From the IMG/VR virus record IMGVR_UViG_3300023223_001361, positions 90,113 to 154,112 of that record: DNA of 64,000 bases; one strand, given 5' to 3'. This document shows positions 3,868 to 56,204 of the stretch, piece by piece. The translations under genes were made by a program, and so were the position numbers. The notes under the pieces were generated by a model. The model ran no database searches and was not told the origin of the DNA. It saw only the letters and a program-made list of their open reading frames with translations. The stretch comes from a virus. Positions within the stretch are counted from its first letter, which is position 1, and each line of letters opens with the position of its first letter.

Positions 3868-4068
3868 ATGAATGTATACGTTGTATATACATGGACAAGA
3901 GATTACTATATTGATGAGGATGCTGCCAATTGCGAGGTATATTCTACTCTAAAAGCGGCAAGAAAAAGAGTTAAAGAATTGAAATCCGAAGCCTCGAAAA
4001 CGTATAATGCTGGTGATGATGAAGGAATTGAAATAATCCGAAAGGAGTTGAATCCGAAAAGAAAGTAA
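3868..4068 (+). CDS. hypothetical protein
   Basis: AGGA RBS; 66 aa. Confidence 0.65.
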   Translation: MNVYVVYTWTRDYYIDEDAANCEVYSTLKAARKRVKELKSEASKTYNAGDDEGIEIIRKELNPKRK

Positions 4069-4240
4069 TGGATTAAAGGAGTATTATGACACACTTAGAA
4101 CTTTTTATTCTTTATCTTCTTCTCGGTATTTTTGGTTTTATTCTTGGTTTTATTATTCAATGTTTACTAAATAAGATATCTCACCGGGTCAATTAGACAC
4201 TGTATCGCCTTCGGGAGAAACAGACAATGATTGATTTACC

Positions 4241-4312
4241 CCCTGCTGAAAGACTCCCGCTTTGGGTTGATAGCCTGAAGGTCCTCGGGTTGGGTTAGTA
4301 AGCAGGGTTTTT
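4241..4312 (+). ncRNA. GC-rich structured RNA element ending in a U tract
   Basis: CCCTGCT/AGCAGGG outer stem, GAA/AGTA internal loop, CTTTGGGT/GCCTGAAG hairpin with G-U pairs, TTTTT. Confidence 0.5.
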
Positions 4313-4439
4313 CATTGATCCCTAAAGTTTCTCAAAAGGTATACCGATACATAATTTACTAAATATTATATGCCACTTTAGGGAGATAGCTAAGCTATAG
4401 GCACAATGAATAATCAAGGAAAACCACCAGATACGACTC

Positions 4440-4709
4440 TTGCGAGCGATCATATTCAACGGGTTGTTGACGAATATTTTAAGGATAAGGAAGATGAAAG
4501 GGAAAAGTCAAATTCAGGAAACGATGCAAGAAGTGCAATCGGCACTAGACAATCTTCCAAAGCCAAAAACAGCTAGTCAACAAATTGCGATTGGTTTAGT
4601 TATAGCATTATTGGGAGCCTTTTCGATCAGAATTACAAAACGTGTATTGGGACGTTTGAATATGCCTAAGAAGAAAAAGAGAAACAAAAACAAAACAAGA
4701 TCTAAATAG
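4440..4709 (+). CDS. hypothetical membrane protein (true start probably internal)
   Basis: one hydrophobic helix, Lys-rich tail. Confidence 0.5.
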   Translation: MRAIIFNGLLTNILRIRKMKGKSQIQETMQEVQSALDNLPKPKTASQQIAIGLVIALLGAFSIRITKRVLGRLNMPKKKKRNKNKTRSK

Positions 4710-22112: not shown

Positions 22113-22141
22113 TTGACATATCTTTTAAAAATCATTATAAT
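22113..22141 (+). promoter_or_regulatory. sigma70-type promoter
   Basis: perfect TTGACA-N17-TATAAT. Confidence 0.75.
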
Positions 22142-22923: not shown

Positions 22924-22931
22924 TATAAATA
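22924..22931 (+). promoter_or_regulatory. T4-type late promoter
   Basis: TATAAATA upstream of the structural block. Confidence 0.7.
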
Positions 22932-42677: not shown

Positions 42678-43370
42678 ATGGCAAAAGGCCGTAATGTGAA
42701 TCAATCGGAAAGAGTAATAACTTTTGAACCAATTACACAAAATCAAAAAAATGCTGTTGATGCTTTTTATCATGGAAAGAATTTATTATTACACGGAATT
42801 GCTGGAACAGGAAAAACATATTGTGCTTTAGCATTAGCTTTGAAAGAAATATATCGTACAAGGAAATATCAAAAGATAGTTATAATTAGGAGTATTGTTC
42901 CTACTAGAGATATGGGATTTTTACCGGGAACTCTACAAGAAAAAACTCAGATTTATGAATTACCTTATAAAGCATTATTTTCTGAGATATGTGAAAAGGT
43001 TAATGCATATCAAAGTTTAAAGAAGCAAGATATTGTGGAGTTTATTTCGACTTCTTATGTAAGAGGAATTACATTAAGTAATTGTATTGTTATTGTGGAT
43101 GAAATTAATAATATGAATTTCCATGAACTTGATTCAATTATTACTAGAATAGGTGAAAATTGCCGAATAATTTTTTGCGGTGATTATCGCCAGAGTGATT
43201 TAACTAAGGAGTGTGAAAAAGATGGAATTCATGAGTTTATGGATATTGTTGAATGTATGAATTCTTTTGCATTTGTGGAATTTGGTATAGATGATATAGT
43301 AAGAAGTTCCTTAGTGAAAGAATATATTATTGAAAAGGATCGAATTGATAATGAGCGAAAAAATAACTAG
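42678..43370 (+). CDS. phoH: PhoH-like ATPase
   Basis: GIAGTGKT, GFLPG, RG.TL, VDE.NN and GDYRQSD. Confidence 0.93.
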   Translation: MAKGRNVNQSERVITFEPITQNQKNAVDAFYHGKNLLLHGIAGTGKTYCALALALKEIYRTRKYQKIVIIRSIVPTRDMGFLPGTLQEKTQIYELPYKALFSEICEKVNAYQSLKKQDIVEFISTSYVRGITLSNCIVIVDEINNMNFHELDSIITRIGENCRIIFCGDYRQSDLTKECEKDGIHEFMDIVECMNSFAFVEFGIDDIVRSSLVKEYIIEKDRIDNERKNN

Positions 43371-44262
43371 ACCCTTATTGGCTGGTAAAGCTGAAGATCT
43401 ATCAAAAATTATTTATCCAGTATATGCTACCCCAAAGCTAGATGGTATTCGTTGTCTGAAAGTTGATGGTAAAGTAGTTACCAGAAATTTCAAAGATCTT
43501 CCAAATAAATTTACAAGAGAAATATTAGAAAAGTGTTTACCTGATGGTGTTGACGGTGAAGTGATGCTTCAGTATGGAGAAAATTTTAATACTATTCAAT
43601 CTGGTATTATGCGTCAATCTGGTGAACCATCTTTTACCTATCATATATTTGATTATGTTAAAGATGGTTTAGATAAATCGTATATACGAAGAATAGCAGA
43701 TTTGCGCCGATGGTGGTACAATGCTGGCAGTGACCTGCCACCTTGGAGAATCTATATTCTTCTCCCAACAAGATTAGATAATGAAAAACAATTACTTTCT
43801 TATGAAAAGGGGTGTTTGAAAAAAGGATATGAAGGAGTAATGATCCGATCACCCTATGGTCGTTATAAATGCGGACGTTCTACAGCTAAAGAAGGTATTC
43901 TTTTAAAGATTAAAAAATTTTTTGATTCTGAAGCAACTGTTCTTGGTCTTGTTGAAAAGATGACTAATACCAATGCTAAAGAGAAAGATGCTTTTGGGAA
44001 CTCTAAGCGTTCGTCACATAAAGCAGGAAAGGTGCCTGCTGGAACTTTAGGTGCATTGGAAGTTGAACAAAATATTCCAGGTCTAGGATTGGTCACTTTC
44101 AATATTGGTTCTGGATTTGATGATAAAATTAGAGAAAAAATTTGGAATAATTCTGATGAATATATCGGAAAATCGGTCAAATATAAGTATCAAGAATTGG
44201 GCAAAGAAGCTCCTAGATTTCCAGTATTCCTTGGTTTTCGTCATGAAGATGACATGTCATAA
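43351..44262 (+). CDS. ATP-dependent DNA ligase
   Basis: PKLDGIR, DGE, YEGVMIR, LLKIK, GSGF and RFPVF. Confidence 0.93.
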   Translation: MSEKITRPLLAGKAEDLSKIIYPVYATPKLDGIRCLKVDGKVVTRNFKDLPNKFTREILEKCLPDGVDGEVMLQYGENFNTIQSGIMRQSGEPSFTYHIFDYVKDGLDKSYIRRIADLRRWWYNAGSDLPPWRIYILLPTRLDNEKQLLSYEKGCLKKGYEGVMIRSPYGRYKCGRSTAKEGILLKIKKFFDSEATVLGLVEKMTNTNAKEKDAFGNSKRSSHKAGKVPAGTLGALEVEQNIPGLGLVTFNIGSGFDDKIREKIWNNSDEYIGKSVKYKYQELGKEAPRFPVFLGFRHEDDMS

Positions 44263-44267
44263 TTTTC

Positions 44268-44296
44268 TTGACTTTCTCTTCAGAATTTTGTATAAT
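44268..44296 (+). promoter_or_regulatory. sigma70-type promoter heading the kinase-tmRNA-tRNA operon
   Basis: TTGACT-N17-TATAAT. Confidence 0.75.
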
Positions 44297-44331
44297 TAGA
44301 GTTGCTTAAATTATTTTATGGAGATTTCCTT

Positions 44332-45051
44332 ATGTCATTCAAAGCTATCGTTTTTTTGTTAGGTCATCAAGCTGGTGTGGGCAAAGACACCCTCGGTAAT
44401 CATCTTATTGGAAAAGAAGGTTTTATTAGATTTGCATTTGCTGATAAGTTGAAAGAATCTGTAGCGGATTTGTATGGTTTCACGAGACAGCAAATGTATA
44501 CTGATGAAGGAAAGAATATACCAGATGAAAGATATGAGAAATTTGGATGGTCGGAATGTGTACCTGGAGCTGAACAATTCCATGAGGCTAGATGGATTAA
44601 GAAAGGATATTATACGCCAAGAGAAATTCTTCAAGATTTTGGTCAAGAACAAAGAGCAAGATTTCCAGATATTTGGGCAGATTATGTTTTTCGACAAATC
44701 GAAGCTAGACTAGAATCTGATCTTTCAGATTTAGAAGATAGAGAGCCTGGAAGATTTGTTGTGACAGATTTTCGCTTTCCAAATGAATTTACGGTAGCTA
44801 GGAAATATGCTGCTAAATTGAATATTAAGATTATACCTGTCAAAATTGTACGGCCTGGAAAGAGAGATGATTTTCCTGGAGTATTGAATGTTAGTGAAAC
44901 TGCTTTGAATGATTTCACACAATGGAAACATATTCTTCGGAATGATGGAAGTATTGATGATTTGTATACTAAATACAAATCTCTAGATATAAATTATTTT
45001 GGGGGCGAAATGGGTTCGACGAGGGAAGTCAGAACTGAAGTAAGCGTGTAG
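44332..45051 (+). CDS. deoxynucleoside monophosphate kinase (T4 gp1-like); last 17 codons lie inside the tmRNA
   Basis: G.AGVGKDT, FADKLKE, PREILQ.FG, VVTDFRFPNE and NDGS; GGAG RBS before ATG 44332. Confidence 0.88.
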   Translation: MSFKAIVFLLGHQAGVGKDTLGNHLIGKEGFIRFAFADKLKESVADLYGFTRQQMYTDEGKNIPDERYEKFGWSECVPGAEQFHEARWIKKGYYTPREILQDFGQEQRARFPDIWADYVFRQIEARLESDLSDLEDREPGRFVVTDFRFPNEFTVARKYAAKLNIKIIPVKIVRPGKRDDFPGVLNVSETALNDFTQWKHILRNDGSIDDLYTKYKSLDINYFGGEMGSTREVRTEVSV

Positions 45052-45377
45052 AGGATAGGTAGTAGGCCTCTTTAATCATCTGCCTAAAGCTTTAATCGCA
45101 GCTAATCAAGACGATTACGCAGTTTACGCCCTAGCGGCATAACCTGTTTCTCACTCCATAGAGAGTGAGCGATCGAAGAATGAGATGTCTATGGTAATTC
45201 TAAGATCGTCATCCACTATAGAATCGGAATTGTAAGTCTGGAGCAGTTCTTAAATAAACAGACAAAATTCTTGTTAGTTTGTTCGTTTGTAAACAAGAGT
45301 ATCAAAACGAAATATACACGTAGAAATCTTTTGTAATGTTCTCTCGGACGCCGGTTCGATTCCGGCCGCTTCCACCA
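45001..45377 (+). ncRNA. ssrA: transfer-messenger RNA (tmRNA), 377 nt; tag (A)AANQDDYAVYALAA at 45098-45142
   Basis: GGGGGCG...GGTTCGAC 5' end, 3' T-arm GCCGGTTCGATTCCGGC + CGCTTCCACCA, G3-U70, resume context TAATC-GCA, tag ending YALAA*. Confidence 0.97.
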
Positions 45378-45389
45378 AATTTTGTTTAT

Positions 45390-45464
45390 GGTCCTTTGGT
45401 GAACTGGCTATCACACTACCCTGTCACGGTGGAGTAATGGGATCGATACCCGTAGGGACCGCCA
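45390..45464 (+). tRNA. tRNA-Asp(GUC)
   Basis: cloverleaf, loop CTGTCAC, G73, CCA. Confidence 0.92.
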
Positions 45465-45851: not shown

Positions 45852-46135
45852 TGGGACTTATACCTGTAGGGAAAAGAGTATTAGTGAGAGAAGCAGAAGC
45901 AAAAGAAACTACAGAAAGTGGACTTTTTCTTCCTGTGAATGCTCAACAGGAAATGATTACTCAAGGTGAGGTATTATGTGTGCCAGAAGTGGTCGAAAAA
46001 GATGTTGAAATACCTGTTGACAAAGGTGATAAGATATTGTATAATAGAAATGTAGCTGTTCCAGTTAAGGATTTAACAGGGGAACAATTATTCACTGTAG
46101 ACTTCGAGAGGATTCTAGTAAAGTTTAGAGACTGA
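45851..46135 (+). CDS. groES: co-chaperonin GroES
   Basis: P.GKRVLV...E.T.SGLFLP; GEVL.V; GDKILY. Confidence 0.9.
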   Translation: MGLIPVGKRVLVREAEAKETTESGLFLPVNAQQEMITQGEVLCVPEVVEKDVEIPVDKGDKILYNRNVAVPVKDLTGEQLFTVDFERILVKFRD

Positions 46136-46854: not shown

Positions 46855-47114
46855 GATTAGAAGCTTTAAAATCTTGGCAGGGATCCAAAATATTTTCAAC
46901 TACTGCATCTAGAGAAATGAGATTAGCTCTTAAGCAGGTAATCAGAGAATTGGAACCGTCTAAATCAAAAAAGAAATAGATTATGATTGATCAAAGAATT
47001 TTGCTTAAGTTGAATAAAAGAGATAAGAAAAAACTTGCCATCATAAAAGTAAGAACAGAAAAAGGTCTTCGGTTCCAACTTTATAGATATGGAGGTGAGT
47101 GGAAAGAAATAATA

Positions 47115-47189
47115 TGCGGCATGGAGAAGTAGTAACTCACCGTGTTCATAACTCGGAGATCGCAAGTGCAAATCTTGTTGCCGCTACCA
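47115..47189 (+). tRNA. tRNA-Met(CAU), initiator-like
   Basis: U1-U72 mismatch, A11-U24, loop TTCATAA, CCA. Confidence 0.85.
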
Positions 47190-56177: not shown

Positions 56178-56204
56178 TATAAATATTCTGAACCCTTATT
56201 TATA
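56178..56204. promoter_or_regulatory. pair of face-to-face T4 late promoters
   Basis: TATAAATA on + at 56178-56185 and on - at 56204-56197. Confidence 0.75.

Follow-up and report, generated by a model that had tools for sequence, protein, structure and literature searches.

What happens to a gene whose reading frame finds no stop codon before it enters a gene for transfer-messenger RNA (tmRNA)? This question is raised by the deoxynucleoside monophosphate (dNMP) kinase gene and the tmRNA gene (ssrA) that follows it on a 64,000-nucleotide (nt) stretch of viral DNA, referred to here as the window, which comprises positions 90,113 to 154,112 of the IMG/VR record IMGVR_UViG_3300023223_001361. The window comes from a virus record of 160,399 bp that is complete and has direct terminal repeats, and its sequence marks the phage as a distant T4-like one, with a G+C content of 34% and a gp32 that is 42-51% identical to that of cyanomyoviruses. 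The kinase frame crosses the 5' end of the tmRNA and closes inside it, an anatomy that is conserved in the three genomes known to carry it and that joins two genes which both have the marks of function. As regards its meaning, we lean, at somewhat better than an even chance, towards a co-transcript with two fates, in which the overlap arose from gene insertion and compaction and has been tolerated; the layout is not a demonstrated regulatory device.

A kinase frame that closes inside the tmRNA

The elements that meet at the junction are the following.

44320-44323, + strand: ribosome-binding site GGAG, read from the sequence, 8 nt ahead of the ATG at 44332.
44332-45051, + strand: dNMP kinase open reading frame (ORF), 239 codons plus TAG; codons 1-223 are the kinase proper and codons 224-239 come from the tmRNA.
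45000-45001, + strand: predicted RNase P cleavage site (between T and G), at the boundary of codon 223 (TTT, Phe) and codon 224; the acceptor stem starts at 45001.
45001-45051, + strand: 51-nt overlap, comprising the tmRNA acceptor stem, D-loop analogue and 5' strand of helix 2, and read as GGEMGSTREVRTEVSV followed by the stop.
45001-45377, + strand: one-piece tmRNA (ssrA) with an encoded CCA end (ARAGORN and Rfam RF00023).

An earlier reading of the window, made from its letters without database searches (the sequence-only reading), had held that the kinase ORF meets no in-frame stop ahead of the tmRNA and closes only at TAG 45049-45051. Direct inspection bears this out, with the tmRNA placed by ARAGORN and Rfam and the first in-frame stop lying within it. 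The distance from 44332 to 45001 is 669 nt, or 223 codons, and the mature 5' end of the tmRNA thus falls on a codon boundary, again as had been claimed; the sequence TTT/GGGGG, in which the slash marks the junction, is invariant in the three genomes that carry it (the window and the relatives L003 and L004). Any meaning of the codon boundary in itself was considered and rejected: the coincidence is a 1-in-3 event, all three frames are closed within 50 nt of the start of the tmRNA (by TGA 45036, TAA 45041 and TAG 45049), and a ribosome stalls at any 3' end. The 80 nt ahead of the tmRNA, inspected for a leader structure, fold unremarkably (z = -2.0).

Judged by its substitutions, the overlap evolves as RNA and not as protein. 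Across the 16 overlapping codons the proportion of synonymous differences (pS) is 0-0.08 and that of nonsynonymous differences (pN) 0.06-0.14, with no codon-type substitution pattern, and the changes in the tail, E to K and M to L, arise from compensatory changes in the acceptor stem. In the AlphaFold model the predicted local distance difference test score (pLDDT) of residues 226-239 is below 50, and the 16-codon tail is accordingly predicted to be a disordered appendage, dictated by the RNA, on a complete enzyme. An exhaustive search of 1.84 billion representatives returned no other kinase cluster aligning past residue 224.

In the 160,399-bp genome no long ORF other than the kinase runs across the 5' end of an RNA gene. 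A short ORF of 49 amino acids (aa; MIDQRILLKLNKRDKKK...) at 46983-47132, a doubtful gene, crosses five codons into the tRNA-Met at 47115-47189.

Conservation and origin of the junction

The sequence-only reading had called for a comparison with related phages and had named, as the alternative, relatives that have a stop before ssrA, which would indicate a recent loss in the window phage. The comparison went the other way. In L003 the kinase ORF spans 4001-4612, and 187 of its codons precede the tmRNA start at 4562; in L004 it spans 582-1190, with 186 codons ahead of the tmRNA start at 1140. Both relatives with ssrA at this site are stop-less, in the same frame, with TTT/GGGGG and with the same TAG. 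Because these independently assembled loci share the junction despite saturated synonymous divergence, the stop-less state is neither an assembly or sequencing error nor a recent loss.

The neighbouring genes of the locus bear on where the junction came from.

42678-43370, + strand: PhoH, first in the gene order at the locus.
43330-44262, + strand: ATP-dependent DNA ligase, between PhoH and the kinase promoter.
45390-45464, + strand: tRNA-Asp(GTC) (ARAGORN and Rfam), 12 nt 3' of the tmRNA and part of the same inserted RNA block.

The position of tRNA-Asp(GTC) is the same in L003 and L004. The closest tmRNA-less relative, L006 (52% identity), has the order PhoH-kinase(TAA)-cpn10, with a kinase that ends ...KYLNLGI-TAA, three residues before the junction-equivalent position, and with 2 nt between this TAA and cpn10. 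In L005 (49% identity, a 162-kb contig) the order is PhoH-kinase-small ORF-cpn10, without a tmRNA there. Since L006 has PhoH, kinase with stop and cpn10 in this order, the tmRNA/tRNA-Asp block apparently landed on the kinase stop, and the simplest history suggested by these comparisons is a single insertion of the block in an ancestor of the window phage, L003 and L004.

At the metagenomic locus L024 a related tmRNA (tag ANQDDFVYALAA) lies about 970 nt downstream of a kinase with its own stop; a 100-aa Cys-rich ORF (L024:1027-1335) ends with TAA 5 nt before that tmRNA, and five tRNAs follow. It was considered whether TAG 45049 has been kept for the sake of the kinase. This was rejected, given that the L024 tmRNA, which no ORF overlaps, has GTAGAGG as well; for the same reason the terminal TAG is older than the overlap and did not arise for the kinase.

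Further carriers were sought in several collections. A metagenome scan with the kinase alignment found the junction in none of 80 loci and a tmRNA in L024 only, and no tmRNA lies near the kinase at 78 further metagenomic loci. IMG/VR was scanned with peptides of the kinase, with two stretches of the tmRNA in exact form and with a degenerate pattern for the tag, and yielded no further carriers; the nine matches to the tag pattern were rejected, as they are not tmRNAs. Among cultured phages, blastn with the locus matched only the tRNA-Asp, and tblastn with the kinase found only homologues of about 30% identity.

The tmRNA

The tmRNA matches RF00023 over model positions 1-374 of 374 with 148.4 bits (E 2.7e-59; gathering score 47). 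From 45001 it forms a 7-bp acceptor stem, GGGGGCG/CGCUUCC, followed by the discriminator A and CCA, and its tRNA-Ala-like domain has the G3-U pair and a T-arm, GGUUCGAUUCC, read from the sequence. Where L003 and L004 differ in the acceptor stem, the changes are compensatory (C6-G to U6-A and G7-C to A7-U), and so are those in the T-stem. The tag frame is given by the following feature.

45098-45142, + strand: tag reading frame GCA...GCA TAA, encoding AANQDDYAVYALAA and a stop (ARAGORN; gene positions 98-142).

The frame has a resume codon and a hydrophobic ...ALAA end with its stop. Because the tag of L004 differs from that of the window by three synonymous changes and Tyr to Phe, the tag is, on this comparison, under purifying selection. 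Taken together, the compensatory stem changes, the synonymous tag changes and the 148-bit match to RF00023 mark the tmRNA as clearly functional by sequence criteria. No SmpB gene was found in the phage genome, and for this reason the phage tmRNA would depend on the SmpB of its host.

A tmRNA in a metagenome-assembled genome of the Bdellovibrionales (L086:276-640, CAZDIO010000063.1), in a context of ordinary bacterial genes, carries the tag ANQDDYAPVALAA; in 185,579 species genomes no other bacterial tmRNA matched ANQDD[YF]A..ALAA. As a pointer to the host lineage or to the source of the phage tag this match would be a weak hint, because the remainder of that RNA has diverged.

The kinase

The ribosome-binding site, within ATGGAG, is invariant across the four of four aligned loci. 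The kinase matches phrog_139 over residues 5-217 (E 2.8e-36) and has a P-loop, GHQAGVGKD, whose G11, G17, K18 and D19 are among the 34 invariant columns of the kinase alignment. The three carrier kinases are 56-60% identical, with a pS of 0.62-0.69 and a pN of 0.17-0.23 over the whole gene (Nei-Gojobori), giving a pN/pS of about 0.3 with saturated pS. The last 12 kinase codons keep the coding type of pattern (Leu as CTA, TTG or CTT; Ile as ATA or ATT), and on these measures purifying selection acts on the kinase as far as its final codons.

A decaying kinase gene that has lost its stop, or an assembly chimera, could also produce such a junction. It would fit the match to PF21448 (DNMK), which at 28.6 bits is barely above the cut-off of 27.1 bits. 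The junction is, however, common to three independent assemblies, and the pN/pS ratio, the intact P-loop with its invariant columns, the phrog_139 match and an AlphaFold model with a pLDDT of 86.7 all speak against decay. This explanation is effectively refuted by the shared junctions and the conservation of the kinase, and we regard it as scarcely credible.

The same model (predicted template modelling score 0.81) places the last helix at residues 208-216, and the modelled fold is complete before the junction, by about residue 220. Kinases of relatives stop naturally at the equivalent position, as does P0004, which ends ...KYLNLGI. A truncated product of 223 residues would contain the whole kinase fold and is predicted to be functional.

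Kinases without the junction (alignment A1: P0008, P0010, P0014, P0015, P0009, P0011 and P0012; L005:4001-4711) share a conserved C-terminal tail, Q-x-[IV]-x-[VI]-[DE]-L-S-F-M-E-[KQ], an example of which is ...QKITVELSFMEK; the tmRNA-carrying clade is without this tail. It may resemble the short clamp-binding C-terminal peptides of T4 replication proteins.

Transcription of the locus

Two promoter-like elements have to be weighed.

44268-44296, + strand: sigma-70-type promoter TTGACT-17-TATAAT, ahead of the kinase, with 11/12 positions matching.
44988-44995, + strand: TATAAATT, which nearly matches TATAAATA of the T4-type late promoter and is a candidate internal promoter; it ends 5 nt before the tmRNA.

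The claim that one sigma-70 promoter heads both genes agrees with what was found at 44268-44296. The element recurs at the same place in L003 (3933-3961) and L004 (514-542), base for base in the three carriers, and L005 has a related TTGAT.../TATATAC there. It is the only conserved promoter on the + strand upstream of the tmRNA. The pattern TTGAC-N17-19-TATAAT occurs six times in the window, always on the + strand, against 0.31 expected. Consensus scans found no terminator-like site on the + strand between 42.5 and 49 kb or in the L003 and L004 loci, and no sigma-70-type promoter with at least 9/12 matches between 44478 and 45443. From these scans we infer that kinase and tmRNA are co-transcribed.

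The perfect matches to TTGAC-N17-19-TATAAT on the + strand of the window lie at 22113, 31007, 41239, 44268, 46017 and 49382. The one at 46017-46045 sits inside the 3' end of cpn10 and heads tRNA-His.

According to an alternative explanation, the tmRNA is made mainly from a T4-type late promoter of its own, TATAAAT[A/T], located in the 3' end of the kinase and starting transcription at or near the mature 5' end, in which case the kinase mRNA would be largely intact to TAG 45049 and non-stop mRNA would be negligible. TATAAATA is the T4 late-promoter consensus. The sequence-only reading had named TATAAATT as a possible internal promoter, and the motif is indeed present in the window, with a perfect TATAAATA at its place in L004, each ending 5 nt before G1 of the tmRNA. 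Of the 14 matches to TATAAATA in the genome, of which only 12% is intergenic, 9 fall between genes and 8 are followed by an ORF start within 60 nt, a placement in which TATAAATA appears to behave like a real promoter. Moreover, promoters embedded in coding ends seem to be used in this phage, since the one inside cpn10 heads tRNA-His. On the other hand, the motif is not conserved, L003 having TATTGACT at this place, and the variant of the window, TATAAATT, lacks a promoter-like placement (6 of 25 occurrences intergenic, 3 near ORF starts) and simply encodes Asp-Ile-Asn in AT-rich DNA. The stretch between 44478 and 45443 is also free of the sigma-70-type sites sought, and read-through transcripts from 44268 would still hold a foldable tmRNA that is open to RNase P. 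An independent late start of the tmRNA is thus possible in one or two of the three genomes and is not a conserved feature; as an account of the locus as a whole, separate expression is unlikely, if deserving of attention.

Within the window, TATAAATA occurs at 22924, 41993 and 56178 on the + strand and at 56197 on the - strand, the last two forming a divergent pair.

Fate of the co-transcript

Under the favoured explanation, the tolerated overlap, the conserved promoter at 44268 would transcribe kinase, tmRNA and tRNA-Asp together. The first ribosomes, coupled to transcription, would probably terminate at TAG 45049 and yield an active 239-aa kinase with a disordered tail of 16 residues; the acceptor stem would have to wait until transcription reaches the 3' end of the 377-nt tmRNA. 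The folded tRNA-like domain would then be cut by host RNase P between 45000 and 45001, leaving upstream a stop-less message of 223 codons. RNase P makes the 5' ends of tmRNAs (PMC3985003), and the expectation that maturation would leave a non-stop kinase mRNA is mechanistically sound. Ribosomes at the 3' end of this mRNA would be substrates of tmRNA-SmpB, and products of the cleaved 223-codon message would carry the tag. Such a layout probably puts a ceiling on the kinase made from each transcript, and translation of the kinase would hinder maturation of the tmRNA and vice versa.

The stop-less state may persist without selection, because no single point mutation creates a harmless stop: the last kinase codons are constrained by the protein, the final TTT is more than one step away from any stop, and the acceptor stem locks the bases that follow. 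Judging from the sequence, only an in-frame insertion, a rarer event, could restore a harmless stop.

Several points weigh against the tolerated dual-fate transcript. The promoter scans behind the assumed co-transcription cover consensus types, with middle-type or other phage promoters outside their reach; a late-promoter-like TATAAAT(T/A) precedes the tmRNA in two of the three genomes, and part of the tmRNA could be made independently; and the junction is carried by three genomes only, which go back to one evolutionary event.

It could be argued instead that the junction has been selected as a feedback device, kept since maturation of the tmRNA makes the kinase mRNA a substrate of trans-translation, in such a way that the kinase, and with it the supply of deoxynucleoside triphosphates (dNTPs), tracks rescue capacity as in arfA. 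Retention of the junction over saturated synonymous divergence in three lineages would suit such a device, as would the whole kinase fold in the 223-residue product, which an arfA-like switch would need, and there are precedents in arfA (PMC3989581) and in the 'feedback situation' described for Carsonella smpB-ssrA (PMC4131195). Retention is nevertheless explicable without positive selection, by the protein-constrained last 12 codons, the TTT and the acceptor stem; L006, L005 and L024 use an ordinary stop, with or without a tmRNA; no functional connection between a dNMP kinase and ribosome rescue is known; and what is observed comes down to a single evolutionary event, seen in three genomes. 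A selected device is therefore improbable in our view. As for the interpretation given in the sequence-only reading, its structural part (stop-less ORF, one promoter, junction on a codon boundary) stands, and the proposed loop between dNTPs and ribosome rescue has no support beyond the layout.

A variant of this idea concerns timing and dosage. Early read-through would delay folding of the tmRNA and yield active kinase, after which RNase P maturation would make the transcripts non-stop, and the kinase would be tagged with the long tag of the phage itself and removed. Supply of tmRNA and level of kinase would be reciprocally coupled, in an arfA-like switch that operates through RNase P and has the tmRNA itself as its cis element. 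This variant, too, we hold to be an improbable one.

Relation to known systems

Programmed non-stop mRNAs are a rare way to tie the level of a protein to ribosome-rescue capacity, with arfA as the one well-studied case, and the overlap of a coding sequence (CDS) into a tmRNA has been noted once before, for Carsonella smpB. The smpB-ssrA overlap of Carsonella ruddii was reportedly described earlier by Mao et al. in 2009, whom Hudson, Lau and Williams followed. In this bacterium smpB runs into ssrA, and the same non-stop inference has been published (Hudson, Lau & Williams 2014, PMC4131195). As in the phage, an upstream CDS on the same strand lacks a stop before the tmRNA gene and extends into it, and the C-terminal extension of the protein is an 'apparently random' sequence set by the intrusion into ssrA (PMC4131195). 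The Carsonella CDS, however, is smpB, the partner of the tmRNA itself, in a highly reduced endosymbiont of which only half of the strains have the overlap, whereas the phage case concerns a dNMP kinase of a T4-like phage, a phage-borne tmRNA without a phage SmpB, and a junction that is identical in three of three known carriers. Conservation is better at the phage junction than in Carsonella, and the phage case is also the easier one to study by experiment.

Overlaps between CDSs and t(m)RNA genes have been surveyed in bacterial genomes as candidate sources of high-frequency non-stop mRNAs (PMC4131195, Table 4). An upstream same-strand CDS with a Pfam match overlapped a valid t(m)RNA gene in 250 cases among 115,660 RNA genes, about 1 in 15,000 mRNAs, and the overlaps each trace to few evolutionary events, as for FtsW/RodA with tRNA-Ile-CAT in Helicobacter (PMC4131195). 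The kinase locus has the same form, a profile-positive upstream CDS in the same orientation whose end extends over the 5' part of a valid t(m)RNA gene; those genomes are bacterial, whereas this one is a phage. A literature search turned up neither a phage ORF that reads into a tmRNA nor an example with a kinase. The concept, then, is already published, and the kinase-tmRNA overlap would be a new phage instance of a rare arrangement.

In E. coli, arfA is expressed from a non-stop mRNA truncated by RNase III, and its regulation has been experimentally shown (PMC3989581). The likeness lies in endonucleolytic processing in or at the end of an ORF that gives a stop-less mRNA, in a truncated product that is functional, and in a protein level that would depend on trans-translation. 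The two cases differ in the enzyme and its target (RNase III on a hairpin in arfA, RNase P on a tRNA-like domain, as predicted here) and in the product: the arfA loop makes sense since ArfA itself acts in ribosome rescue, a process with which a nucleotide kinase is not connected in this way. For that reason the kinase locus is not classed as arfA-type; at most it may behave similarly.

About 2.3% of phage genomes carry a tmRNA (PMC9004378). Like those of the mycobacteriophage Bxz1 group, Bacillus phage G and the OM43 phage Melnitz (PMC4131195, PMC9004378), the tmRNA of the window phage is a complete ssrA in a large lytic phage, behind an early promoter and near tRNA genes. Melnitz differs in having a two-piece tmRNA behind a glutamine riboswitch, and none of these tmRNAs is described as overlapped by an upstream ORF. 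A parallel of another kind is the tRNA punctuation of mitochondria, where an RNase P cut at the 5' end of a tRNA likewise sets the 3' end of the upstream mRNA. There, however, a U or UA stump is completed to UAA by polyadenylation, whereas the phage mRNA would end ...UAU UUU, to which A-tailing gives no stop.

The junction bears on what phage-encoded tmRNAs are for, and it offers a compact case that can be cloned, in which a kinase of 0.7 kb and a tmRNA of 377 nt lie behind a strong promoter and competition between translation, tmRNA folding and RNase P could be followed directly. If the overlap is merely tolerated, its value is one of annotation, as the kinase is called as a 239-aa protein of which 16 residues come from the sequence of an RNA gene.

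Other genes near the RNA clusters

An RF-1/ArfB-like gene, sought as a match to the RF-1 domain, was not found in the genome of the window phage. In L003, a Cys-rich HNH-like ORF of 125 aa (L003:6820-7197) runs 14 nt into a tRNA-Ser gene (L003:7184-7271) and stops at a TGA in the D-arm (GGC TGA GTGG); it has the look of a truncated homing endonuclease. The tRNA cluster of L003 contains, furthermore, a 69-aa ORF (L003:7375-7584) with an RF-1 (peptidyl-tRNA hydrolase, GGQ-type) domain, possibly an ArfB-like rescue factor that accompanies the phage tmRNA.

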